A stretch of 28,718 nucleotides of DNA from an uncultured archaeon (GCA_938074535.1 CALJER010000046.1:1-28718), one strand, 5' to 3'. Positions 11,810-28,718 are shown, counted from the stretch's first letter. Notes: generated from the sequence alone by a model not told the origin. Program-made: numbers and translations.

Positions 11810-12760
11810 TCAACCCTTTGACCGGGATCCGGGGAGGGAGAAATACCCCCGGAAGACCCTCGCACCCCACCTCTCCATCTCCGACGCGATCCTCCTCAGG
11901 TGCTCCTCCCCGGGTGGAGGCAGGTCCCCCAGCGGGTACTCCCTGCCCAGCCTCCCGTACTTGGGGACTCCCAGCGGATGGTAGGCCAGGGGCTCGATCC
12001 CGAGCAGGCTGTCCACCTCCAGGCAGAACTCCACCGCGGCCCTCAGGTTCTCCTCCGAGTCGGTGAGTCCCGGGACGATGGGCACTCTCACCAGCACGGG
12101 GATCCCCATCCTGCCGATCCTCCTGAGGTTCTCCAGGATCAGCCCGTTGGGAGCGCCGGTGAGCTCCTCGTGCCTCCTCCCGTCCATGTGCTTGAGGTCG
12201 TAGAGCACGAGATCCGCGGACCGTACCACCCTGGAAAGGGCCTCCCACTCCCTGCACCCGGCGGTCTCCACCGCCGTATGGATCCCCCGCGCCCGGCACT
12301 CCCTCAGGAGCTCCGAGGCGAACTCCGGCTGGAGGGAGGGCTCCCCCCCGGAGAGCGTGACCCCCCCGCCGGACCTGCGGTAGAAGGGGAGGTCCCTCGC
12401 CGCCGCCTCCACCACTTCCCTCACGCCCAGCCGCTCCCCCACCACCTCCAGCGCGCCTGGGGCGCATGCCCTGACGCACTCCCCACAGCCGTCGCACGCC
12501 GACCTGTCGATCCCTATCTTTCCGTTCCTCCTCTCCAGCGCCCCCCTCGGGCACCTCGGGAGGCAGGAACCGCAGCCGCTGCACCTCTCCTCGAAATACA
12601 TCAGCTCGGGTGCCGCCCTCTGGGACTCGGGATTATCGCACCAGAGGCACCTGAGGGGACACCCCTTGAGGAAGACGGTGGTCCTGAGGCCCGGTCCATC
12701 GTGCGTGCAGCACCTCTGGAGGTCGAACACCAGACCCCTGATCTCCTCCCCGCCTGCCAT
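11810..12760 (-). CDS. Glycyl-radical enzyme activating enzyme (radical SAM with inserted 2x[4Fe-4S] ferredoxin domain)
   Basis: HDGPGLRTTVFLKGCPLRCLWCDNPESQ, CSGCGSCLPRCP, CDGCGECVRACA, GGGVTLSGGEP, HTAVETAG, LYDLKHMD. The real start is ATG 12760, not the track's 14164. Confidence 0.96.
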   Translation of the reverse strand: MAGGEEIRGLVFDLQRCCTHDGPGLRTTVFLKGCPLRCLWCDNPESQRAAPELMYFEERCSGCGSCLPRCPRGALERRNGKIGIDRSACDGCGECVRACAPGALEVVGERLGVREVVEAAARDLPFYRRSGGGVTLSGGEPSLQPEFASELLRECRARGIHTAVETAGCREWEALSRVVRSADLVLYDLKHMDGRRHEELTGAPNGLILENLRRIGRMGIPVLVRVPIVPGLTDSEENLRAAVEFCLEVDSLLGIEPLAYHPLGVPKYGRLGREYPLGDLPPPGEEHLRRIASEMERWGARVFRGYFSLPGSRSKG

Positions 12761-12783
12761 GGGACCGGGCACCTCCGCCGGCC

Positions 12784-15078
12784 CTAGAGGGAAAGGGCCA
12801 CCCTTTTGATGACCAGGTCCTGCAGAACCTCCGGCAGCTCCACGAAGCGGGCGCTGAACCCCGCCACCCTCACCAGCAGATCCCGGTACCTCTCCGGGTG
12901 CTCCTTGGCCTCGAGCAGGATCTCCGGGGAGAGGATGTTGACGTGGAGGTGCAGCCCCCCCATGTCGGTCAGATAGGTCCTGAAGAGGTCGGTGAGGGCC
13001 TCGACCGGCCCGTTCACGGTCAGGGCCAGCGAGGCCGTGTAGGCCCTGGTGTGGTCCAGTTTGGCCGCGGAGGCGAACACCGCCGTCGGACCCGCGCGGA
13101 GGGTGCCGGGGGAGGGGGAGATCCCGTCGGTGAGGGGCTCCCCTCCCCTCCTGCCGTCGGGGGTGGCCGCGGTGCCCAGGCCCAGGTTCACGTTGAAGAT
13201 CAGGGAGTGCAGGCCGGGCGTGAAGGGGCCCGGTTTCTCCGGGTTCCTGTGGCAGAAGTGCCTGTCCACCTCGTCGAAGAAGAGGTTCACCACCTCCGCC
13301 GCCAGGGAGTCCACGTAGGCGTCGTCGTTCCCCCACTTGGGCGCCTCCGCCAGCATGCGCCTCAGCTCCTCGTACCCCTCGAAGTCCCTGCCCAGAGCCT
13401 CCAGAAGCTCCCGCATGGAGATCCTTCCCTCCTCGAAGACCAGCTTCTTGATCGCCGCCAGGGAGTTGGCCACGTTGGCCAGCCCCACCCCGTGCATGCC
13501 GGTCCAGTTGTGCCTCCCCCCTCCCTCCAGGACGTCCTTCCCCCTCTCCATGCAGCCCTCCACGTGCAGGGAGGCGTAGGGCAGGCACATCGTCCCCCTG
13601 ATGGCGGCATCCATGAGCTCGCTCTCCTCCGCCATCGCCTTGACGCAGTGCTCCAGCTGCCTTCGGAAGGCCCCCATGACCTCCTCGAAGGTGGCGAAGC
13701 CCGCCGGGTTCCCCGTGGGCGGGCCTATCCGCCTGCCCGTGAACCTGTCCACCCCGTCGTTCAGGGCCAGCTCCAGGACCTTGGCCAGGTTGAGCCAGCC
13801 GCTGTGGTCCTTCCTGCTGTAGGTGGTGAAGTGCTGGCAGCCGTCCACGCTGTAGGTGCGGGCCTCCTTCAGGGGTATTCCCCACCTCAGGAGGGAGGGG
13901 ATGATGGCCTCGTCGCTGTTGAGCTGCGGCCTGCCCCCGCTCACCCTCATCACCTCCACCGCCCTCCTCAGCAGCTCCCTGGGGGTGCCCCGGTGGACCC
14001 TGAGGCTGACCTGGGGCTTGGGCATGCGCACCTCCTCCAGCGCCTGCAGGAAGAGGTACGTGAGCTCGTTGGTGGCGTCCCTCCCGCTCTCCGTCTGACC
14101 CCCCAGCGTGATGCCCGTCACGTGGGAGTCCAGGTCGAAGGGGGCGTACGTGATCTCGTTGCACTTGAGCAGGAGCTCCTCGACAAGCGCCAGCGCCCCC
14201 TGCCTGGTGAGCCTCCCCTCCTTCAGGTCCCTCAGGTAGTACGGGTAGAGGAGCTGGTCCAGCCTCCCGAAGGAGATGGAGTCTCCTCCCGACTCTATGT
14301 TGGCGATGAGGAAGGCGAACCAGGTGGACTGCAGGGCCTCGCGGAAGGTCCGGGCGGGCTCCCAGGGCACCAGGTCGCAGACCCCGGCTATCTCCTCCAG
14401 CTCCTTACCCCTCTCCCCTTCCGCCTCCTTCGCCTCCTCCCTGGCCTTGGCGGCGTACCTCGAGGAGAAGGTTTTCACGGCGTCGCAGACCAGGAGCGCC
14501 GCCTTATAGAAGAGCTGCCTCCCCAGGCCGCCCGGCTCCTCTGGGTCCACCCTCTCCAGCCGCTCCTCCGCCTCCCTCCTCGCACCGCTGAAGCCCCGCC
14601 CGAGCACCATCGGCAGGTTCACGAGGTAGCGGCCCCTCCTGCTCCCCGGGACCCCCATGTGCCAGTACCAGACGGAGGCCTCCCTCGCGGCGAGGATCCG
14701 CTCGGGGAGCAGGGCCCGGACCATGTCCTGGTAGTTCCTCCCCTCCCAGTAGGAGCTGAGCTCCCGCACCTCACGCTCGGTGTCCTCATCCGGCGCGAAC
14801 CCGGAGCGCACGTAGTTCTCGAACTCGTCCACCCCGAACTCAGGCCACATGGGAACCCCCCTGAGCGAGCTGGCCCAGTGGCCGACGAGGAGCTCCTCCT
14901 CCAGGATCCAGACGCTCATCCCCTCCAGCACGGCCTTCAGGACCTTCGCGGCCCGCAGGATGGGGGGCTCCCCCTCCGTCTTCCTGTAGGCCTCGGTGGC
15001 CAGCCGTGCTCTCTCGGTGCAGAGCCTGGGCTTGGCCTCCAGGTAGCGCTCCCTTAAACGCTCCAGCCTGGGCTCCAT
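12784..15078 (-). CDS. Glycyl radical enzyme (PFL2/dehydratase-like superfamily), substrate unknown
   Basis: ELLVG, SFGRLDQLLYPYY, LGGQT...DATNELT, YSVDGCQH (Cys codon 13837-13839), PKWGNDD, ATPDGR...PLTDGISP, glycyl loop LLVRVAGFSARF (Gly codon 12859-12861). 764 aa from ATG 15078. Confidence 0.95.
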   Translation of the reverse strand: MEPRLERLRERYLEAKPRLCTERARLATEAYRKTEGEPPILRAAKVLKAVLEGMSVWILEEELLVGHWASSLRGVPMWPEFGVDEFENYVRSGFAPDEDTEREVRELSSYWEGRNYQDMVRALLPERILAAREASVWYWHMGVPGSRRGRYLVNLPMVLGRGFSGARREAEERLERVDPEEPGGLGRQLFYKAALLVCDAVKTFSSRYAAKAREEAKEAEGERGKELEEIAGVCDLVPWEPARTFREALQSTWFAFLIANIESGGDSISFGRLDQLLYPYYLRDLKEGRLTRQGALALVEELLLKCNEITYAPFDLDSHVTGITLGGQTESGRDATNELTYLFLQALEEVRMPKPQVSLRVHRGTPRELLRRAVEVMRVSGGRPQLNSDEAIIPSLLRWGIPLKEARTYSVDGCQHFTTYSRKDHSGWLNLAKVLELALNDGVDRFTGRRIGPPTGNPAGFATFEEVMGAFRRQLEHCVKAMAEESELMDAAIRGTMCLPYASLHVEGCMERGKDVLEGGGRHNWTGMHGVGLANVANSLAAIKKLVFEEGRISMRELLEALGRDFEGYEELRRMLAEAPKWGNDDAYVDSLAAEVVNLFFDEVDRHFCHRNPEKPGPFTPGLHSLIFNVNLGLGTAATPDGRRGGEPLTDGISPSPGTLRAGPTAVFASAAKLDHTRAYTASLALTVNGPVEALTDLFRTYLTDMGGLHLHVNILSPEILLEAKEHPERYRDLLVRVAGFSARFVELPEVLQDLVIKRVALSL

Positions 15079-15181
15079 CCCCCTCCTTCCTTTGCCCCCC
15101 TTCCATAAATAGCCGGAGCAGGCCCCTCCGGCGGAAGCCGCGGGCGACGGAGTTAAACCCCGCCGCTCCCCTGCAGGGGAG

Positions 15182-15784
15182 ATGGAGGCCAAGAGGCTGG
15201 AGGCGGCGGTGGGCTCCTGCAGGCGCTGCCGCTTCGTGGACCAGCCCTTCCTCCTGGACCGGGTTTACTCCTGGCTGCCCAGGAAGGTGAGGGTGCTGGC
15301 CGTGGGGGAGTCCCCTCCACCGGGGAGGAAGGCGGGCTCCCTCTACCACCTCGAGGCCTTCGACAGGCTCAGGCTCTCCCTCAGCCTCATCCTGGGGGTG
15401 AGGATGGAGGAGGTGCTGGAGACCCTCAGGCGCCACGGCGTTTTCTTCACGGCGGCGGTGAAGTGCCGTCCACCCGACAGGAAGAGCATCGAGGGGATGA
15501 GGCGGAACTGCGTTTCCCTCCTCCGCGGGGAGCTGGAGGCCCTGCGCCCCCGGAGGGTGGTGGCCATGGGAAGGTTCGCCTCGGCCTCGGTGTGCGAGCT
15601 CCTGGGCCTGTGCCCGCCCGACGACCAGAGGACGCTCTCCTGGACCAGGGCGGGGGAGAGGGAGGTGTTCTTCACCCCCCACCCCAACCACCTCTTCAGG
15701 TTCAGGAGGGAGCTCTGTCCCCTGGTGAGGGAGGTCCTGCTCGGTGGCTCCGATCCCTTCCCACGAAGAGCAGGGGGAAGATGA
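15182..15784 (+). CDS. Uracil-DNA glycosylase superfamily protein (family 4/5-like, four Cys for [4Fe-4S])
   Basis: CRRC, VLAVGESP, FTAAVKCRPP, NC..LLRGEL..LRPRRVVAMGRFA, TPHP. Confidence 0.85.
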   Translation: MEAKRLEAAVGSCRRCRFVDQPFLLDRVYSWLPRKVRVLAVGESPPPGRKAGSLYHLEAFDRLRLSLSLILGVRMEEVLETLRRHGVFFTAAVKCRPPDRKSIEGMRRNCVSLLRGELEALRPRRVVAMGRFASASVCELLGLCPPDDQRTLSWTRAGEREVFFTPHPNHLFRFRRELCPLVREVLLGGSDPFPRRAGGR

Positions 15785-17283: not shown

Positions 17284-20200
17284 ATGGGTAGACCTCTGAG
17301 CGAGCGAGCCAGGGCCTTTGGCTCTTTAGCGGTAGTGGTTTCAGTTCTTGCCTCCACCATCCTCCCCCCCGTTGGGGCCACGGAAGACAACACTCCCCCA
17401 CCGTTCGCCTCCCTGATCTCCCCTCCCGACAACGCCGTCCTCCAGGAAAACCGCCCCGAGTTCATATGGACAAAGGTCGAGGATCCCAGCGGGGTCACCT
17501 ACACCCTGGTCATCGACAACGACCCCAACTGCGAGACCCCATGGCTGACGAAACCCGACCTGACCGAGAACACCTACCAGCTCGCGGACAGCGAGGCTTT
17601 GCCGAGCGGAAGGTGGTACTGGCGCGTTCGGACGAAGGACGGGGCCGGAAACGAGGGGGAGTGGTCCGACATCTGGAGTTTTTACCTGGATTCGCTTCCG
17701 CCCTCGGCCAGCTCCTGGAAGATCACGAAGATCATTAGAGGGGCTGAGAACCTTTTCGACTTCGGGGATGGGGAGTACACGAACGACAACACCCCGTTCA
17801 TCTCCGTGATCCTGACCGACGACGCCGTGGGTGTTAAGGAGAACATGGAGCTGCTGCTTGACGGGAATCTCGTATCGTACACTTACCATCCGGAAAACGG
17901 CCAACTTTGGCATCAGGTCCCTCCAGAAAATTCGCTCGCCGAGGGCGAGCACGTCGTGGAGCTGAGGGTCTGGGATGACTTCGGCAACCATGCACTGATC
18001 ACGCGCTCTTTCAGGGTGGACCGCACCCCCCCGGCGCGACCTCCGCTGCGCTCACCCCCGGATGATTCTTCAACAAACGACAACACCCCAACTTTCGGCT
18101 GGTTTGAGGTGATGGACCACCAGGTGAGCTACACCCTGGAAATCGACAACGAGCCCGGTTTCACCGATCCCTTCACCAAGCCGAACCTGGTCTCCTGCGA
18201 ATACACCCTTGCGGATGAGGAGGGGCTACCGGACGGTCTCTACTACTGGCGCGTCCGGGTGAGGGATGGGGCCGGGAACGAGAACGTGTCGGAGATCTGG
18301 AGGCTCACCATCGACACGGTTCCCCCCAGCCCCCCCATCCCCCTCTCACCGGAGAACGGAAAGATCATCGGGGAGAGCACTCCCCTCTTCCGGTGGAGCA
18401 GCGTCCAGGGAGCCGTGAGGTACAGGCTCCAGATCGACAACGACCCCGACTTCCCTTCGCCCGTCTACGACAACCAGGACCTCACCGAAAACTTTGACAA
18501 CTTTGCGGAGCACCCCGAGAACTCGCTCGCGGACGGGATCTGGTACTGGAGGGCGGGTTCGGTGGATGAGGTGGGAAACGTGGGCTGGTCTCCCGGCTGC
18601 CTGTTCATGGTGGACACCGCACCTCCCCCCGAGGCACCCATACCGCTCACGCCGATGAACAGCATCATCACCAACGACAGCACCCCGACCTTCAGGTGGA
18701 GGGGGGTCAGCGATCCCTCGGGCGTGAGGTACCAGCTCCACTATGCCAGGGACAACGCGTTTTCCGTCGACCTGGTAATCGTCGAAAACCTCCAGGACAA
18801 CACCTACACGCCCGCTTCCCCCCTGGTGGACGGCACCTACTACTGGAGGGTCAGGGCGGTCGACAACTTCGGCCATCCCGGTCCGATTTCCGCCACCTGG
18901 AACTTCACGGTCGACACCCACGTCACCGCCCCCGTGCTCAGGAGACCGGAAAACCTTTCCCTGGTCATCAACCGGGTGCCTGAGTTCGATTGGTGGGACG
19001 TGGTGGATGGGGCCGGCATCCGATTCTACAGGCTTGAGGTGGACAACGACCCGGATTTCGGCTCTCCTGAAGTGAGGGAAGAACTGACCCGCTCCGAATA
19101 CGTTGCGGAAAACCTGGGTGAGGGCATCTGGTACTGGCGCGTCTGGGTGAAGGACAACACCTACAACGAGAACGAGAACCTGGCGGGCAACGAAAACGTC
19201 TCGGAGACCTGGCAGTTCGAGGTGATCAGGGATGAGTGGGTAAACGCGGCTACCCTGCTATGGCCTCCGGACGGCGCGTGGCTCAACGAGAACAGGATCA
19301 CCTTCGACTGGACGGACGTGAGAGACAGGTTTGAACCCGTGAAGTATCGCTTCCAGCTTTTGACAGAGCAAGATATCGTGGTGGACTCCTTGTGGAGTCT
19401 TACTGTTTCTGAGTACACGGTGCCAGATTTGCTTGACGGTACCTACTACTGGCGCGTTTGGACTCGAGACGGCATAGGCAACCTGAACTGCTCTGAGGTG
19501 AGGAGCTTCACCATAGACACGAGGCCACCCTCTTCTGCGGCCGCACCCTACCACCCGCCGTATTACTACGCGGTGATAGTAGGGATTTCAGGGGTTTCTC
19601 GAAATCTCTACGCCACGGGTTACGAGAGCAACTTATACACGAATGGAGAGAGGGTGACGGGCGCTCCGGACGACAGCTACGCCTTCGTAACGATAGACGA
19701 CGAAAGTGAGAATTACTGGATATGCGGAAAGGGCTACCCAACCTACAAGGGTGCGATATCCTCCGTGAAAATAAAAGTCGAATACCGGGTCAGCTCACCT
19801 TTTGATGATGACTATCTCATCCTGTACCACTCGCACGGTTCTTCCTCCCGCAAATGGAGGCCCGAAGACACGAGCGACACGACGGTGGAGCTCGACGTCA
19901 CTGGAGATAGACTTTGGACCTGGCAAGACATAGGGAACCTCAGAGTTTACTTGGGGTATGAGAGCAAGGGTCCGGCGGACAACAAGAGCGTCTACGTCGA
20001 CGCCCTCTACATAGAGGTGACCTGGGGCGTGAAACAGTACGGAGAGAGCGACGCCAGCGATTTTTACGAGGTCCTGCTGGACTACCCGAACTGGAGCGCG
20101 GAAAGGATCGTAAAGCTGGTGGGACCGGATGCCACGGTTCAGAACGTCACGAGCGCCCTCCGTTCCTTCGCCACGTCCACCACGGAGGTCGACTTCGGAG

Positions 20201-23200
20201 ACGTTTTCCTCTTCTACTTCTCTGGCGGGGGGAGTCCGGAAACCATAGAGCTCTACGACGGCAGCCTGAGCGGGAGTGAGCTGAAGAATCATCTCGACAA
20301 CATTAGGTGCAGCACCAAAATAGTCATTGTAGACGCTGACAACAGTGGTGGATTCATCAGCACTTTCAGCTACCCCTACTATGCGATCGCGACCTCCGCC
20401 CGAGAAAACGAGTCCGCGATGGAGAGCGCTCCCTTCCAGCACTCGGTTTTCACCCACTACCTGATGGAAGGGCTCTTTGCAACCTACTATCCGCACGTGG
20501 GGCCGGCCGACGCGGATAACAACTTCAGGGTAACGGTCAACGAAGCCTTCGAGTACGCAAAAAATAGGACCGTGGAATACACCGGAGGGCAGCAGAACCC
20601 GCAGAAAGGCGGCGGCAAGCTCAACTCCATCATCGCAGGCTATTTCCCCCCCAAGCCGTACGAGCCTGTGGGCCTGCTCAACGACCCGACACCCACTTTT
20701 TCATGGACTGCATGCTCGGATCCCGCCGGGCTTACGTATGTGCTGGAAATAGATAACGATCCCGATTTTTCATCCCCGCTGTTCCGCTACGAAAACATAC
20801 CCAACTCCGTCGTTTACCGCTACATGCATTGGGAGAGCGGCTATTGGTGTTTCAAATCATCTTCCATTCTTTACCCCAGCTATCAGCCGCGGGAGCTTAG
20901 CATCCCGGTCATCGTGTACACCATTCCGGACGAGTTGAGAGCGGACGGAACTTACCACTGGAGGGTGAGGGCCGTTGACCTCTCGGGCACCGGCAACGAA
21001 GGGCCGTGGTCCGAAACCGAAAGCTTCACGCTGGACACCGTCCCGCCCGGGACCCCCACCCTGCTCCTGCCAGGAAACGGGGAGAACCTCAACGACAACA
21101 CCCCCACCTTCGGGTGGTCGAGCGTTGAGGAGGCAGCGGGGTACGTGCTCGAGTACGCCACCGACAGCTCCTTCACCCAGAACGTGCACACCATCTTCAC
21201 GGCCGAAAACTCCTACACCCCCCCTGCGGGGTCCGCGCTGGCGGACAACGTGTGGTACTGGCGCGTGCGTGCGAGGGACTCCGCCTGGAACTGGGGTCCG
21301 TGGTCCAGCACTTGGAGCTTCAGGATAGACACGGTGATAGCCTCGCCCTCGCTGCTCCTGCCGAGCAACGACTCCATAGTCAACACCTCCTCCCCGCTCT
21401 TCAAGTGGACCAGCGTCAGCGATCCGCTTGGCGTTAGGTACAGGCTGCAAATAGACAACGACGCCGACTTCTCCTCGCCGGTCTACGACAGCGAGAACCT
21501 GCACGAAAACCAGCATGTGCCTCCCCCGCTGCCGGACGACACCTACTACTGGAGGGTCGCGGCGATCGACGGTGCGGGCAACGTAGGCTGGTCGGGGATC
21601 TGGGTAGTTACCATCGATACGACCGCTCCCCCACCCCCGGAGCTGCTCGAGCCGGAGAACGACTCCTACACGAGCGACAACACTCCCCGCTTCAGGTGGA
21701 CGGTGCCGCTCGATCCCTCGGGGGTAACGTACGAGTTCTGGCTCGACAACGATCCCGATTGCTCATCACCCTTTTACGCAATCTCAGGCCTGACCGAGAA
21801 CGCTTTAACCCTGCCGGACGAGAACTCACTGCCTGATAACTCCTACTACTGGCGTGTCAGGGCAAGAGACAGCTGGGGTCATGTCGGCGAGTGGTCTGCC
21901 GCTTACAAGTTCACCGTCGATACCAGGCCGCCCGTCGAGGCCCCGCTCCTCGTCTCGCCTCCCTCGGGCGAAAACACGCGTGATGGCAAGCCAACCTTCC
22001 GGTGGTCCATTGTGGACGATGCCGCGAAGTATGAGATTTGGATCGACAACGATCAGGACTTCTCCTCTCCGGTGATCGTGGAGAACACACCGGCACTCAG
22101 CTACACCCCGCAAACCCCGCTGCCCGACGGCACGTACTACTGGCGCGTCAGGCCCATCGACGCGGCGGGCAACATCGGTACAAGCTGGTCGGATACCTGG
22201 TGGCTGAGGGTGGACAGCATCATCACGGCGCCGGCGCTGAGATCGCCCGCCGAGGGAGCCTGTGAAAACGATAACCGCCCGACCTTCAGCTGGTCGGCCG
22301 TGACGGATCCCTCAGGCCCCATCACCTACCGCCTCCAGATTTCCCGCAATCCCGAGTTCACGGAGGTGGTCTACGACAACGCGAACATAACGGACAACGG
22401 CATCAGGATCGAAAACGAGCTTCCCGAGAACACCTACTACTGGCGGGTCCGAGCCCGCGACAGCCTTGGAAACGAGAACTGGTCCGCAGGCAGGAACCTG
22501 ACCATCGACGTGACGCCGCCCAGCTCAGGCGTCACCGCGATATCCCCCTACTGGAGGAAAACTGTTCCCTTCACCATAGAGGCGGAGAATACTCCTGACC
22601 TCAGCGGGATCGAAAGCGTCGAGCTCTGGTACCGCTACTCCGATGACAACTGGAGCTGGGGCCCCTGGACCCTATTCGAGAACCCCAAGACGGAACCCCC
22701 CTGGTCCTGGGAGTTCACGGCCCCCAGCGGGGATGGATTTTATGAATTTTACTCTATAGCCAGGGACCGCGCTGGGAACACTGAACCTGTCCCGGGAGAA
22801 GCCGACTCAAGCTGTGGCGTGGACACCACCGCACCCGCCGCTCCCGTGCTGGTTTCCCCGGAGGGCGGAAGCCACCAGACCGATAACACGCCTCGCTTCG
22901 ATTGGCAACCCGTTCCCGACCTGAGCGGCGTCACCTACATCCTCTGGATCGACAACAGAGCTGACTTCAGCACCAGGCGGGAGTATGCAGGTCTGCTTTA
23001 CTCTGAGTTCACGATCCCGGACGGGGAAAACCTCCCAGAGAACCGCTACTACTGGCGCGTGCGTGCGGTCGATCAGGCTGGCAACGAGGGCGAATGGTCC
23101 GAAACGCGAGAGCTCGTCATCGACGTCACACCGCCCGACGAACCAGTTCTGCGAGCTCCAGAAAACGACTCGCCCTTCGAAAATCTCACCATAACCTTCC

Positions 23201-26200: not shown

Positions 26201-28718
26201 TGGACGATGCCGACCACTACACGCTGCAGATCGCAAGAGACAACGCCTTCACCGAGAACCTCAGAACCATCAGCAACATAAGGGAGAACTTCTACGAGCC
26301 CGCCGAGCCCCTCGAGGATGGAACCTGGTACTGGCACGTCTGCGCTGGAGACAATGCAGGAAACCTCAGCGAATGGTCTTCGACCTGGAAGCTCACCATC
26401 GACACGATGGTTTTAGCACCGGTGCTGTTCTCGCCGCCGCACGGCGCATACGACAACGACAACACGCCCACGTTCGTCTGGTCCGCGGTTCAGGATCCCT
26501 CGGGCGTCGCCTACCGCCTGCAAATAGCCCGCGACAACACTTTTGAGAACCTCGTCTATGATGGAAGTCCTCAGGTAGCCGGATATGCCGAAAATGCGGG
26601 AGGTGTGAACTTCGCAAGCCCTGAAAACGTGAGGGGCGCTCCAGACGACAACTGCGCCGTGGCTATTCTCGACAACGAAAACCTCACCTACCTGGTGTAC
26701 GGCGGGGATTACCCCACCGGCCAGGGAGAGATAACCTCACTCGTGATCAAGGCGGAGTACCGCGTTGTTGGGGAACCCGCAACCGATGACAGGCTGGTGC
26801 TGACCTACTCGCTTGACAACGGATCCACCTTTGGTTCCAAGCTCGAGTGGATCCCGACCGACAACGCGGCAAAGGTGGTGAAAGAGCTGGACGTGACCAA
26901 GGACAGGTCGTGGAGCTGGAACGACGTGAAGCGCCTGAGGGTCTACATGCTGTATGAGAACGTCGGACCCGCGGACGGAACGAAGGTCTGCGTCGATGCC
27001 CTCTACATAACCTACATCTCCACCTCCTTCACCCTGCCGCCGGAGAACGCCCTTCCGGACGGCGGCTATTACTGGCGCGTGGTAGTGCGGGACAACGCAG
27101 GCAACGAAAACACCTCCCTGGTGAGGTGGTTCCTCATCGACACGGTTGCCCCTCCCAAACCGAAGCTGGAGGCACCGCGGGACTTTGTAAAGGACAACAA
27201 CCTTCCGAAGTTTGAGTGGGTGGGTGTCTCAGACCTGAGCGGGGTGGTCTACGAGATTCAGGTGGACAACGAAAACGGGTTTGGCCCTCCGAGGGTTTAC
27301 GAGGGGGGCGAGCTCATAAGCTCCAGGCTGCAGCTCGCCACACCGCTCCCCGATGGCGTTTACTACTGGAGAGTCCGGGCCAGGGATCGCGCGGGCAACA
27401 CCGGTCCCTGGTCGGACAACCTGAAGTTCATCATCGACACCAAACCCCCCATGCCGGAGAACAACTACTTGAGGTTCACGTGTTTCGAGGAGAATGAAAA
27501 CAGGAGAACCGAGAAGTACGCCACGCCTGCAGAGGTAGCGTACATAAACGACAACACGCCGCGCCTCTGGTTCCTCTTCGAGGACCGCGGGGCAGGCATC
27601 CGCGAGAACTTCGTGCTTTGGCTGGACAACGAGAACACCTTCACCGACCCGTGGGTGCTCACGACGGACAACACCTACCTGGAGAACCGCAACGGGGCAC
27701 GCATCAGGCTCAGGGCGGAGAACCTCATACCGGTCCCACTGCCAGAGAACACCTACTACCTGAAGCTGCAGATCTGGGACGACATCCCCGAGGCCGCCGG
27801 GGGCCCGCACTTCCTAGCGCTCATCTGGTGTTTCGTGGTCGATATCACCCCTCCGAAAGAGGCTCCGAAGTGGACGGGTGGAACGTGGTACAACGACAGC
27901 ACCCCCACGTTCTCCTGGACGGAGATATGGGACAACGAGGAAGAAAACAGAAAGGTCTGGAGATACCAGCTGCAGATAGCTAAAGACAACGACTTCGACA
28001 GGAAGCTCGTCTACGACAACGCCTGGATCTACGACAATGTCGTGTGCGATGGAGAAGTTTCCCACACGATCGAGGATTGGAATGCCCTGCCCGATTACGA
28101 AAACTATTACCGCAGGATCCGCGGCATAGACAACGCGGGCAACGAGGGACCGTGGTCGGAGGTCAGGTGGTTTGGCATCGACACCCGGCCTCCCACTTCT
28201 TCGGTGAACCCCGTGGGTAACAAGACCTCTTCGCCCTTCGAGGTCACTGCAACGGCTTCCGACGCTGGAAGTGGAGTGGCAAGCGTGGAGCTCTTCTACG
28301 ACTGGTCGAGCGACAACAAGACCTGGCAGGGCTGGGTAAGCTTCGGCGTTGACACCTCTCCGCCCTGGTCCTGGTCGTTCAATACCCCCAAGGGCGAAAA
28401 CTACTACAGGTTCTACTCGAAAGCTAGGGACAGGGCCGGGAACGAGGAAGCGTACACTGGTCCGGACGCATACTGCCACTACAGCGCGGCGCCGCCGCCT
28501 ACGCCGGATTTCAGCCTCTCCGTCAGCCCGTCGAGCGGCACGGCGGCACAGGGGAGCTCCACCACCGCTACGGTCACCGTGACCTTCACGGGCGGCTACG
28601 CCCAGACCGTCACCCTGAGCGCCAGCGGGGCGCCCCAGGGGGTCTCGGTGGGCTTCAGCCCCGACAGCGGCTCCTCCTCCTTCGCCTCCACCATGACCAT
28701 AACCGTGGGGGCGGAAGC
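17284..28718 (+). CDS. Giant secreted/cell-surface repeat protein (>3,800 aa, runs off the window): Fn3/Ig-like repeats, inactive caspase-fold domain, inserted beta-sandwich modules
   Basis: Signal-peptide-like start MGRPLSERARAFGSLAVVVSVLASTILPPVGA|TEDNT. The same frame reads open at every point I translated, through ...STMTITVGAE at the window end. Its absence from the ORF track is consistent with no stop inside the window. Confidence 0.93.
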   Translation, partial: MGRPLSERARAFGSLAVVVSVLASTILPPVGATEDNTPPPFASLISPPDNAVLQENRPEFIWTKVEDPSGVTYTLVIDNDPNCETPWLTKPDLTENTYQLADSEALPSGRWYWRVRTKDGAGNEGEWSDIWSFYLDSLPPSASSWKITKIIRGAENLFDFGDGEYTNDNTPFISVILTDDAVGVKENMELLLDGNLVSYTYHPENGQLWHQVPPENSLAEGEHVVELRVWDDFGNHALITRSFRVDRTPPARPPLRSPPDDSSTNDNTPTFGWFEVMDHQVSYTLEIDNEPGFTDPFTKPNLVSCEYTLADEEGLPDGLYYWRVRVRDGAGNENVSEIWRLTIDTVPPSPPIPLSPENGKIIGESTPLFRWSSVQGAVRYRLQIDNDPDFPSPVYDNQDLTENFDNFAEHPENSLADGIWYWRAGSVDEVGNVGWSPGCLFMVDTAPPPEAPIPLTPMNSIITNDSTPTFRWRGVSDPSGVRYQLHYARDNAFSVDLVIVENLQDNTYTPASPLVDGTYYWRVRAVDNFGHPGPISATWNFTVDTHVTAPVLRRPENLSLVINRVPEFDWWDVVDGAGIRFYRLEVDNDPDFGSPEVREELTRSEYVAENLGEGIWYWRVWVKDNTYNENENLAGNENVSETWQFEVIRDEWVNAATLLWPPDGAWLNENRITFDWTDVRDRFEPVKYRFQLLTEQDIVVDSLWSLTVSEYTVPDLLDGTYYWRVWTRDGIGNLNCSEVRSFTIDTRPPSSAAAPYHPPYYYAVIVGISGVSRNLYATGYESNLYTNGERVTGAPDDSYAFVTIDDESENYWICGKGYPTYKGAISSVKIKVEYRVSSPFDDDYLILYHSHGSSSRKWRPEDTSDTTVELDVTGDRLWTWQDIGNLRVYLGYESKGPADNKSVYVDALYIEVTWGVKQYGESDASDFYEVLLDYPNWSAERIVKLVGPDATVQNVTSALRSFATSTTEVDFGDVFLFYFSGGGSPETIELYDGSLSGSELKNHLDNIRCSTKIVIVDADNSGGFISTFSYPYYAIATSARENESAMESAPFQHSVFTHYLMEGLFATYYPHVGPADADNNFRVTVNEAFEYAKNRTVEYTGGQQNPQKGGGKLNSIIAGYFPPKPYEPVGLLNDPTPTFSWTACSDPAGLTYVLEIDNDPDFSSPLFRYENIPNSVVYRYMHWESGYWCFKSSSILYPSYQPRELSIPVIVYTIPDELRADGTYHWRVRAVDLSGTGNEGPWSETESFTLDTVPPGTPTLLLPGNGENLNDNTPTFGWSSVEEAAGYVLEYATDSSFTQNVHTIFTAENSYTPPAGSALADNVWYWRVRARDSAWNWGPWSSTWSFRIDTVIASPSLLLPSNDSIVNTSSPLFKWTSVSDPLGVRYRLQIDNDADFSSPVYDSENLHENQHVPPPLPDDTYYWRVAAIDGAGNVGWSGIWVVTIDTTAPPPPELLEPENDSYTSDNTPRFRWTVPLDPSGVTYEFWLDNDPDCSSPFYAISGLTENALTLPDENSLPDNSYYWRVRARDSWGHVGEWSAAYKFTVDTRPPVEAPLLVSPPSGENTRDGKPTFRWSIVDDAAKYEIWIDNDQDFSSPVIVENTPALSYTPQTPLPDGTYYWRVRPIDAAGNIGTSWSDTWWLRVDSIITAPALRSPAEGACENDNRPTFSWSAVTDPSGPITYRLQISRNPEFTEVVYDNANITDNGIRIENELPENTYYWRVRARDSLGNENWSAGRNLTIDVTPPSSGVTAISPYWRKTVPFTIEAENTPDLSGIESVELWYRYSDDNWSWGPWTLFENPKTEPPWSWEFTAPSGDGFYEFYSIARDRAGNTEPVPGEADSSCGVDTTAPAAPVLVSPEGGSHQTDNTPRFDWQPVPDLSGVTYILWIDNRADFSTRREYAGLLYSEFTIPDGENLPENRYYWRVRAVDQAGNEGEWSETRELVIDVTPPDEPVLRAPENDSPFENLTITFRWDERADEWAPSFERYIIQIAADSGFASIENENTVSDNFYVYTFASENTYYWRVRAFDKAGNASGWSGTFVIRSHVRAPELYLPENGSFVADNRPTFTWYTVIDPSPITYRLQVDNDPDFSSPVYDNSEITENSLMLPAENALYAAGSWYWRVSARDGINPENWSEVRQLTYGSIGKPILRAPENGATLRDNTPEFRWENGVNASKHRILVDNDPDLSSPIDNVLVWSDSWTKDLPGYPEGTYYWSVWAIDDIGTENGAENIWQFTINISFTGGPAPLLAPEYDSCTSDNTPYFSWTTAENEAGPATIRYHLQVDNDPDFSSPIYDNPNISENFDNFDTHPENSLPDGLWYWRVRAEDNYGNAGPWFVSRFTVDTVPPSPVYPQSPVLGGYENDSCPTFRWIGGSDANFLAYRLIVDNDPDFSSPLYDNDNIRTTRHRLPQENCLDAPGIWYWRVSATDRAGNARRSDNWFFIFDNVAPSAPTLLSPENNAFENTGRLIFRWTEPEEFENYKLQIARDNEFASLVLTKANLTDNAYVLAENEALVDGTYYWRVLAYDRAKNASTWSDSFKLTVDTQAPPAPSLLSPENRIYDNNATQTFRWERCEDPAGFENYTIQIARDPGFSEIYHENSSVTENSYTHTFAENGVFYWRVRAKDKARNAGPWSDARWLVVDTAIPGAPRLVAPEDNKHLSTSTPTFDWDPVSDLSGVTYILEIDDDPNFASPLRISGIVASQYTLPADNALIDNTYYWRVQARDKAGNFGEWSEVFKLVIDTVVGKPILLAPENNSLMKENKPYFRWTAVTDEGVTYRLRIDNDPDLLSPVYDNPSLTENFDNFADHPEDALPDGIWYWRVTARDAAGNENSSGIFRFMVDTEVGTPSLYSPDENAFIKDNTPFLDWQRLLDMSDLIYELQVDNDPDFSSPVYSLRGLTLSEHELENELPDGTYYWRVRAIDGAGNEGQWSEKRKFTVDTVEPSAPVLYSPPDGAFENEGTPTFRWYTVDDADHYTLQIARDNAFTENLRTISNIRENFYEPAEPLEDGTWYWHVCAGDNAGNLSEWSSTWKLTIDTMVLAPVLFSPPHGAYDNDNTPTFVWSAVQDPSGVAYRLQIARDNTFENLVYDGSPQVAGYAENAGGVNFASPENVRGAPDDNCAVAILDNENLTYLVYGGDYPTGQGEITSLVIKAEYRVVGEPATDDRLVLTYSLDNGSTFGSKLEWIPTDNAAKVVKELDVTKDRSWSWNDVKRLRVYMLYENVGPADGTKVCVDALYITYISTSFTLPPENALPDGGYYWRVVVRDNAGNENTSLVRWFLIDTVAPPKPKLEAPRDFVKDNNLPKFEWVGVSDLSGVVYEIQVDNENGFGPPRVYEGGELISSRLQLATPLPDGVYYWRVRARDRAGNTGPWSDNLKFIIDTKPPMPENNYLRFTCFEENENRRTEKYATPAEVAYINDNTPRLWFLFEDRGAGIRENFVLWLDNENTFTDPWVLTTDNTYLENRNGARIRLRAENLIPVPLPENTYYLKLQIWDDIPEAAGGPHFLALIWCFVVDITPPKEAPKWTGGTWYNDSTPTFSWTEIWDNEEENRKVWRYQLQIAKDNDFDRKLVYDNAWIYDNVVCDGEVSHTIEDWNALPDYENYYRRIRGIDNAGNEGPWSEVRWFGIDTRPPTSSVNPVGNKTSSPFEVTATASDAGSGVASVELFYDWSSDNKTWQGWVSFGVDTSPPWSWSFNTPKGENYYRFYSKARDRAGNEEAYTGPDAYCHYSAAPPPTPDFSLSVSPSSGTAAQGSSTTATVTVTFTGGYAQTVTLSASGAPQGVSVGFSPDSGSSSFASTMTITVGAE
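17380..28190 (+). repeat. About 27 degenerate ~300-bp (~100-aa) coding repeats
   Basis: Consensus PxLxSPxN...DNTPxFxW..VxDPSGVxYxLQIDNDPDFSSP...LPDGxYYWRVRAxDxAGNxxxWS..WxFxIDT. Counted by (Y/W)YWRV-type motifs, e.g. at 17614, 18241, 18541, 18838, 21544, 21844, 24844, 25141, 25441 and 27361. Confidence 0.9.
19561..20610 (+). other. Caspase/metacaspase (clan CD, C14-like) domain inside the giant protein, catalytic dyad substituted
   Basis: YAVIVGIS...SDA..F...L...AT..NV..AL...DVFLFYFSGGG...IVIVDADNSGGF...IATSARENESA.E...HSVFTHYLMEGL...ADADNNFRVTVNEAFEYA...QQNPQ. Confidence 0.85.

Follow-up and report, generated by a model that had tools for sequence, protein, structure and literature searches.

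We analysed a 28,718-nt stretch of DNA (the window, i.e. a whole contig of an uncultured archaeon, GCA_938074535.1 CALJER010000046.1:1-28718) in which a giant open frame of 3811 amino acids (aa) carries, at positions 19561-20610, a caspase-type domain whose two catalytic residues are replaced, His by Gly and Cys by Asp. We hold with moderate confidence that this domain serves as a non-catalytic binding module, in which a peptide groove and a lectin-like module would be combined on the repeat stalk of a giant surface protein. The stretch (aa 760-1109 of the frame) is predicted to be a catalytically dead domain of the metacaspase/orthocaspase type that has kept its fold, the acidic residue pair that in metacaspases binds Arg or Lys in the S1 pocket, the loop lining the substrate groove and a loop resembling an EF-hand. 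A β jelly roll similar to carbohydrate-binding modules (CBMs) is inserted into its β1-α1 loop and would sit beside helix α1, which bears the first S1 Asp. The pair would act as a binding head, held away from the cell by the immunoglobulin (Ig)-like repeat stalk of a secreted fibrillar adhesin.

A first-pass annotation of the window had described both replacements and, around them, otherwise intact C14-like motifs, a caspase (clan CD) fold interrupted by an insert, and a giant archaeal protein as carrier, all of which agrees with the results given here. Its further statements on selection and novelty did not hold up and are taken up beside the relevant data.

Family, fold and loss of the catalytic dyad

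Homologues were collected with HMMER phmmer, using the 203 residues after the insert as query and 1.84 billion representative sequences as target. The search retrieved 2525 proteins at E ≤ 1e-3 (103 at 1e-10 and none at 1e-30), and the best 150 of these 2525 matches share 29-43 % identity with the query. Forty-seven of the 150, chosen among the shorter ones and mostly with one matched stretch, were aligned with the query using MAFFT. Twenty-one columns of this alignment are at least 80 % conserved among the 47 homologues; the query agrees in 19 of them (a figure partly built in, as discussed below) and its two misses are exactly the dyad. At the position of the catalytic His, present in 46 of the 47 homologues, the query has Gly (codon GGG), and at that of the catalytic Cys, present in 45, it has Asp (codon GAC). 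All the motifs named in the first-pass annotation are present. One of the 19 matching columns, G3, probably agrees by chance, because the true first strand precedes the insert.

The dyad columns were also read in the phmmer alignments of the best 150 of the 2525 matches. Both His and Cys were found in 87 of them, and His in a further 31 whose Cys part falls outside the aligned stretch. Fifteen combine His with another residue at the Cys column, mostly through visible local alignment slips, and six keep Cys while showing Gly or Asp at the His column, five of these with a His inserted just upstream; other combinations account for 11. Alignment slips and second domains explain most of these last 32 rows. 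Homologues sharing the Gly/Asp pair, which the first-pass annotation had proposed to look for, are absent from these best 150 of 2525 (0 rows). At least four of the 150 are truly dead at both positions, namely P0024 (Trp/Trp), P0147 (Asn/Ser), P0040 and the second domain of P0068 (Met/Ser), some of them with signal peptides. P0033, P0049, P0083 and P0110 were rejected as double losses, the first domain being intact in each.

Routine annotation overlooks this domain. No Pfam family was found at E ≤ 1 when the 350 aa were submitted uncut, and genome-wide scans with PF00656 and PF01650 both missed it, which illustrates how split domains can escape detection. With the insert removed, the post-insert fragment passes the cut-offs of Peptidase_C13 (PF01650, 26.3 bits, cut-off 22.8) and Peptidase_C14 (PF00656, 24.4 bits, cut-off 21.4). 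On the full 350-aa stretch, the NCBIfam family caspase_w_EACC1 gave E 2e-9, far below that family's cut-off. The first strand, β1, was located by a motif scan: the strict pattern [YW]A[LVI]3G[LVI] occurs once among all six-frame open reading frames of the genome (1.63 million aa), at residue 762, and the same strict pattern stands directly before the D-A motif of helix α1 in 16 of the 47 homologues (29 of 47 for a looser form). At its other end, the domain stops about 90 residues past the nucleophile position, where Ig-like repeats resume.

Compared with solved structures, the single sequence gave only insignificant phmmer matches, all to metacaspase-4 (E 0.41). A profile of the 47-homologue alignment placed Arabidopsis metacaspase-4 first (E 2.3e-29), followed by metacaspase-9, yeast Yca1, GSU0716 and TbMCA2 (1.9e-22 to 7.5e-14), with legumains at 3e-6 or weaker. 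The family profile thus favours metacaspases over legumains by more than 20 orders of magnitude in E-value, despite the PF01650 score and the top structural score of legumain reported below. In the profile alignment the two replaced positions of the query fall on the His and Cys motifs of metacaspase-4 (S-G-H-G and D-x-C-H-S-G-G), and the C139A entry of that enzyme (6w8r) shows its Ala in the same Cys column.

An AlphaFold2 model was computed for the post-insert part only, i.e. without strand β1, using the 48-row alignment as input (mean predicted local distance difference test, pLDDT, 91.9; predicted template modelling score, pTM, 0.90). In this model, strand 62-68 ends shortly before Gly70 and strand 99-105 shortly before Asp107, the two dyad positions. 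With the model as query, Foldseek returned 149 PDB chains at E ≤ 0.001; legumain, MALT1 and PIGK, a subunit of the GPI transamidase, ranked first (probability 1.00). Superposition with VIA-align gave Z 20.6 for legumain (root-mean-square deviation 2.1 Å over 180 residues), 19.7 for metacaspase-4 (187 residues), 18.8 for metacaspase-9, 18.0-18.2 for caspases 6, 7 and 8, and 18.2 for the caspase-8:cFLIP complex. Judged from the model, the clan CD (caspase/haemoglobinase α/β) fold is not in doubt.

Because Gly and Asp occupy the aligned dyad positions, the post-insert part together with β1 is, as predicted from its sequence, a non-peptidase homologue of MEROPS family C14, and for the same reason the domain is predicted to be one that cannot perform cysteine-protease chemistry. 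Its caspase part holds four other His and one other Cys, none of which looks like part of a replacement dyad in the alignment. The first-pass annotation had pointed to the motif N-H-L-D-N-I-R-C as a source of such a dyad, and this was not borne out: H91 lies in a helix and aligns with Trp, Leu or Ile, and the counterparts of C97, which stands at the start of strand 4 and 10 residues ahead of the nucleophile position, are Ala or Ser; both are core positions. At H141 and H146 a His is also found in true enzymes (14 and 22 of the 47, respectively), and H159 (= H1071) belongs to a seven-residue loop found only in the query.

The residues that shape the substrate pocket are kept. Asp923 (column D11, Asp in 43 of the 47 homologues) aligns with the N-D of metacaspase-4 and corresponds to the first acidic residue in the S1 pocket of metacaspases; Asp1017 (column D105, 45 of the 47) aligns with the D of D-S-C in metacaspase-4 and corresponds to the second. 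In TbMCA2 the corresponding role is described for Asp95 and Asp211, which form the S1 pocket for basic side chains (in the parts of PMC4357240 used here). With Asp1019 at the nucleophile position, three acidic residues should, judging by the alignment, cluster at the old active site. Also kept are E131, E135, the S-G just past the nucleophile position and the closing Q-x-P motif, along with F144, T145, A163, D164, E175, Y179, Q192 and P194 (alignment columns). The last part of the domain includes the EF-hand-like loop D-A-D-N-N-F-R-V-T-V-N-E, whose D164 and E175 are conserved and whose counterparts at the same place in P0003 and P0010 match Pfam EF-hand models; this loop may bind calcium.

The nested jelly roll and its giant carrier

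The insert (aa 772-917) matches no Pfam family at E ≤ 1. Its AlphaFold model, computed separately from that of the caspase part, is all β (pLDDT 95.5), and Foldseek returned 60 PDB chains at E ≤ 0.001 in which CBMs dominate: CBM61, CBM16, CBM4, CBM35 and CBM30, besides the lectin domain of lectinolysin and MAM domains (E 1e-5 to 7e-4, TM 0.42-0.63). A profile of the jelly roll found a weak match to reelin subrepeats (E 5e-4 over the whole chain and 0.55 over its best stretch). The likeness to these CBM families and to reelin subrepeats lies in the jelly-roll fold and in a motif of the Asp-box type carried by the relatives of the nested domain; the differences are that the nested domain belongs to none of their sequence families and that the caspase-nested copy has no Asp-box.

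Alignment A3 brings together jelly-roll copies from nine relatives, 33-46 % identical, whose motif reads S-x-D-x-G-x-T-W/F. A second copy in the same protein, placed outside any caspase domain, keeps this motif as S-x-D-x-G-x-T-F. In eight other genomes of the order (loci L003-L010), the jelly roll is the sole part of the 350 residues giving a match, and at three of these loci (L006-L008) it comes first after the signal peptide in proteins of about 700 aa that end in a C-terminal membrane helix. A jelly roll of about 145 aa with an Asp-box-like motif, lying outside Pfam, thus recurs as the N-terminal head of surface proteins in this order, and its sequence and predicted fold suggest a domain family not yet described, probably of glycan-binding modules.

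The jelly roll also complicated the alignment work. Its stretch D-D-D-Y-L-I-L-Y-H-S-H-G (19816-19840) mimics the caspase motif F-Y-F-S-G-H-G and misled MAFFT, and a first alignment (A1) was discarded, the N-terminal half of the homologues having been placed on the nested domain. On sequence comparison the likeness is chance, because in the relatives of the jelly roll the same place is a plain strand followed by the Asp-box.

Outside the flagged stretch, the giant protein consists of Ig-like repeats. All four flanking segments gave Pfam matches (Big_13, Ig_Rha78A_N, fn3, Big_7, SusE), and the aromatic-W motif of the repeat has 24 matches in the protein, i.e. about two dozen repeats. The N-terminus, with a basic start and a hydrophobic run, resembles a signal peptide, and the protein is probably secreted. 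Of the features expected of a fibrillar adhesin, the repeat stalk is found by Pfam and a signal peptide is suggested by the sequence, and the frame leaves the contig before any C-terminal anchor.

Genomes of the same genus (about 1.2 Mb each) contain several giant open frames of 3170 to 7944 aa with the same Ig-like repeats (G002:C1 at about 79-133 kb, G003:C12, G003:C15 and G004:C75); in G002, a span of about 55 kb includes three of them (3170, 7944 and 5638 aa).

Known relatives and possible roles

The survey of 11,208 prokaryotic p20 homologues published in 2019 by Klemencic et al. (PMC6426788) treats as pseudo-orthocaspases those with at least one dyad residue substituted, and the present domain falls in that class. 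In the parts of this survey used here, pseudo-variants account for 8.6 % of bacterial orthocaspases and none is found among 93 archaeal sequences, under a heading that calls them absent in Archaea. The earlier statement that no system like this had been described was therefore too broad, given these bacterial proteins and the doubly dead library matches. As presented there, bacterial pseudo-orthocaspases resemble the domain in being prokaryotic p20-type homologues with both dyad residues replaced, the fold kept and both S1 Asp conserved regardless of the dyad, and in being presumed non-catalytic. They differ in their usual pairs (Tyr-Ser, Tyr-Ala, Phe-Ser, Gln-Cys, His-Ala, Tyr-Asn and Tyr-Gly, against Gly-Asp here) and are mostly single-domain or TPR proteins linked to phototrophs, whereas the present domain comes from an archaeon, is interrupted by a nested domain and forms part of a probably secreted protein exceeding 3800 aa. 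Its novelty relative to them thus lies in the archaeal host, the likely secretion, the Gly/Asp pair and the nested lectin-like domain.

A 2012 survey (PMC3501461) reports, in the parts used here, a conserved dyad in all 5 archaeal sequences and 30 of 671 proteins predicted to be extracellular. Full-text literature searches, whose coverage excluded most subscription journals, brought to light no archaeal pseudo-variant, and no caspase domain acting as an adhesin head, described since these surveys. In the order of the host, PF00656 domains occur in 13 of 65 genomes (0 of the 5 other genomes of the family), and all 12 of the same-order loci examined keep His and Cys. Set against these loci and the consulted parts of both surveys, the domain is a counter-example to the picture of archaeal caspase homologues with intact dyads only. 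The route from protease to pseudo-protease would thus have been taken in archaea too, on the cell surface and with the insertion of a nested domain. The weight of this counter-example is limited by its origin in a single metagenome-assembled genome.

Other relatives differ in other ways. True metacaspases and orthocaspases of C14B (metacaspase-4 and -9, Yca1, TbMCA2, GSU0716) share the fold and the acidic pocket residues and are the closest sequence relatives of solved structure, but unlike it have the His-Cys dyad and cut after Arg or Lys residues. In family C13, legumain (asparaginyl endopeptidase) and PIGK are the top structural matches and their Pfam model is passed, yet they too have the dyad that is missing here, and the family profile scores legumains far under the metacaspases (3e-6 vs 2e-29). 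In architecture, the nearest parallels are secreted multidomain Peptidase_C14 proteins of the library (P0003, P0008, P0081, P0101), whose caspase domain stands amid PKD, CARDB, cadherin-like, TSP3 or Ig-like domains; PF00656 was present in 23 of 24 library matches scanned. These secreted proteins mostly keep His and Cys and none has Gly/Asp. P0101 and P0147 also have a jelly roll, of the CUB type, nested in the caspase domain, but at another loop, after the His strand, whereas here it lies in the β1-α1 loop.

The origin of the domain was approached using a quickly built tree. A branch with 96 % support splits the query from 11 archaeal domains of the same order; the query's own place is unsettled, long branches meeting there. 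Its GC content at third codon positions (GC3) is 0.756, against 0.79-0.82 in the rest of the gene, and gives no sign of recent transfer. In the same tree, clan CD homologues from an Acidobacteriota genome and metagenome contigs (loci L027 and L030-L034), which keep His (I-G-H-G) and have Ser for Cys (N-T-A-S-S-S-G), form a tight, long-branched group.

Several points weigh against the binding module that we favour. The protein runs past the contig end, so that its C-terminus, and hence its anchor, is missing. The caspase model lacks β1 and the two modules were modelled apart, so that their mutual placement is not given by the models. The caspase-nested jelly roll has lost the Asp-box stretch kept in the other nine aligned sequences, which may be decay. 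The agreement in 19 of 21 columns is partly built in, the homologues having been selected as best matches to the query. No orthologue bearing the domain, on which purifying selection could be gauged, was found in the 5 other genomes of the same family (E ≤ 1) or in the 65 other genomes of the phylum (1e-6), the phylum being represented by 66 species genomes in the collection used, and no match exceeds 43 % identity among the 1.84 billion representatives. The one clear orthologue, in G001 (56 % identity over aa 10-671), ends at a contig edge before the domain; the same genome also matches the C-terminal region, both pieces being on short contigs that do not reach the caspase-like domain.

A word-based search for giant relatives (2096-6670 aa) with the domain found it in 0 of 743 candidates at E ≤ 0.001, and pattern scans for close relatives recovered only sequences of 26-31 % identity, at 4 loci in species genomes and 7 in metagenomes.

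The main rival to a binding role is a structural relic, i.e. a protease domain, active in the past, that persists in the stalk as a folded spacer and does not itself bind anything. We consider it unlikely, though by some way the most serious of the rivals. It would account for the single occurrence of the domain, for its absence from giant paralogues of up to 7944 aa within the genus, for the lost Asp-box of the nested domain and for the length of the terminal branch leading to the query in the quick tree (0.78, where the median is 0.43), and no orthologue is at hand for a selection test that could speak against it. The first-pass annotation had taken the need for several nucleotide changes per codon as a sign of selection; at no more than 43 % identity to any match, multiple hits per codon are expected under drift too, and the argument is weak at such divergence. 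What a relic explains poorly is the pattern of change. Across the 21 best-conserved columns the query departs from the consensus at just the two catalytic positions, with both S1 Asp, S-G, E131, E135 and Q-x-P spared, and neutral decay would not be so selective unless the loss were recent. A fresh relic, for its part, is opposed by a frame open over 3811 aa, by a codon usage like that of the rest of the gene and by a second assembly that agrees at both dyad codons.

If the binding module is the right account, a caspase scaffold can be added to the heads by which giant archaeal surface proteins adhere, to targets of which almost none is known. A more specific version would have the inactive Arg/Lys caspase groove, with its pocket of three Asp, and the spliced lectin-like jelly roll form a bipartite head that reads a basic peptide and a neighbouring glycan, e.g. 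on the S-layer glycoprotein of a partner cell. We put this forward as a speculation that is unlikely to be right; if true, a protease scaffold would have been turned, in a new way, to adhesin specificity, and archaea would have their first pseudo-caspase with a function.

A decoy or regulator of a true caspase-type protease, of the host itself or of a neighbour, acting in the manner of cFLIP on caspase-8 or as a substrate trap, appears improbable. Pseudo-caspases are often accompanied by an active paralogue. Table S1 of PMC6426788 gives cFLIP as a pseudo-variant, the library match P0068 carries a true and a dead domain in tandem, and the structural matches include the caspase-8:cFLIP complex (Z 18.2). 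However, no second caspase homologue was found in the host genome (93.6 % complete): the query protein matched only itself, PF01650 and PF00656 gave 0 matches each, and a profile of 250 matched stretches recovered only the domain itself at E ≤ 10. A foreign target, for its part, is pure conjecture.

An enzyme with rewired chemistry, in which Asp at the nucleophile position and the two pocket Asp, perhaps with a metal ion, would catalyse hydrolysis or some other reaction, is more improbable still. The expected clustering of D923, D1017 and D1019 would suit it, as would the calcium dependence of metacaspases (stated in the parts of PMC4357240 used here), but the general base is replaced by Gly and no newly placed His or Cys is available, H141 and H146 being common in true enzymes, H91 and C97 lying in the core and H159 in the query-only loop. 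No precedent surfaced in the literature searches, none of which was aimed directly at rewired chemistry.

The sequence itself is very probably sound. One public DNA run contains the stretch, at a depth of about 7x, and is probably its source; no RNA run containing it is listed. A second assembly of this run, which is probably the source and so not independent, covers 19400-20800 (1401 bases) in one piece and differs at one site, 20401 C>A, a synonymous change (CGA to AGA). The low depth and the single run could be cited for an artefact, be it a chimeric contig or an error in sequencing or assembly, but such an artefact is hardly credible with two base changes needed per replaced codon, a second assembler giving the same letters bar that synonymous site, and a frame open across 11.4 kb.

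Features and genomic setting

Coordinates of the giant frame and of the features discussed, numbered from the first letter of the window.
Feature	Position	Strand	Basis
Giant open frame, 3811 aa	17284..28716	+	Pfam repeats, translation; 3' end cut by contig end
Putative Sec signal peptide, aa 1-33	17284..17382	+	Basic start, hydrophobic run, then P-P-V-G-A-T; by eye from translation
β1 strand of caspase-like domain, Y-A-V-I-V-G-I	19561..19602	+	Motif scan; split from remainder by nested domain
Nested CBM-like β jelly roll, aa 772-917, in β1-α1 loop	19597..20034	+	Alignment, AlphaFold, Foldseek
Remaining caspase-like domain (Peptidase_C14/C13, clan CD), aa 918-1109	20035..20610	+	Pfam, AlphaFold, VIA
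Conserved Asp at start of helix α1 (E-S-D-A), residue 923	20050..20052	+	Column D11, homologues and query
Gly (GGG) at catalytic His position	20227..20229	+	Middle Gly of F-Y-F-S-G-G-G
Conserved Asp two residues before nucleophile position, residue 1017	20332..20334	+	Column D105, homologues and query
Asp (GAC) at catalytic Cys position, residue 1019	20338..20340	+	Second Asp of V-D-A-D-N-S-G
EF-hand-like loop	20509..20544	+	Acidic or amide residues at loop positions 1, 3, 5 and 12
Second jelly-roll copy, outside any caspase domain	26572..27018	+	50 % identity, E 1e-29

The window corresponds to contig C46 of the host genome (1.2 Mb in 53 contigs). The small subunit (SSU) rRNA locus of this genome scores 1353.8 bits with the archaeal model and 1016.4 bits with the bacterial one, and the higher archaeal score identifies the host as an archaeon. 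The first 17 kb of the contig contain ordinary metabolic genes, encoding UbiX, UbiD, an AcnX-type dehydratase, a glycyl-radical enzyme and its activase, a UDG-family glycosylase and an iron-dependent repressor. On the minus strand (11810-15192), the glycyl-radical enzyme (PFL2/glycerol-dehydratase type, 631 bits) adjoins its own radical-SAM activase. Together with UbiD/UbiX and the AcnX-type dehydratase, it points to an anaerobic fermentative lifestyle for the host.

The 16S rRNA gene of the host (locus L035, G000:C3:23171-25526) spans 2356 bases with all 1478 positions of the archaeal model matched, and therefore contains about 880 additional bases, perhaps an intron or another insertion.

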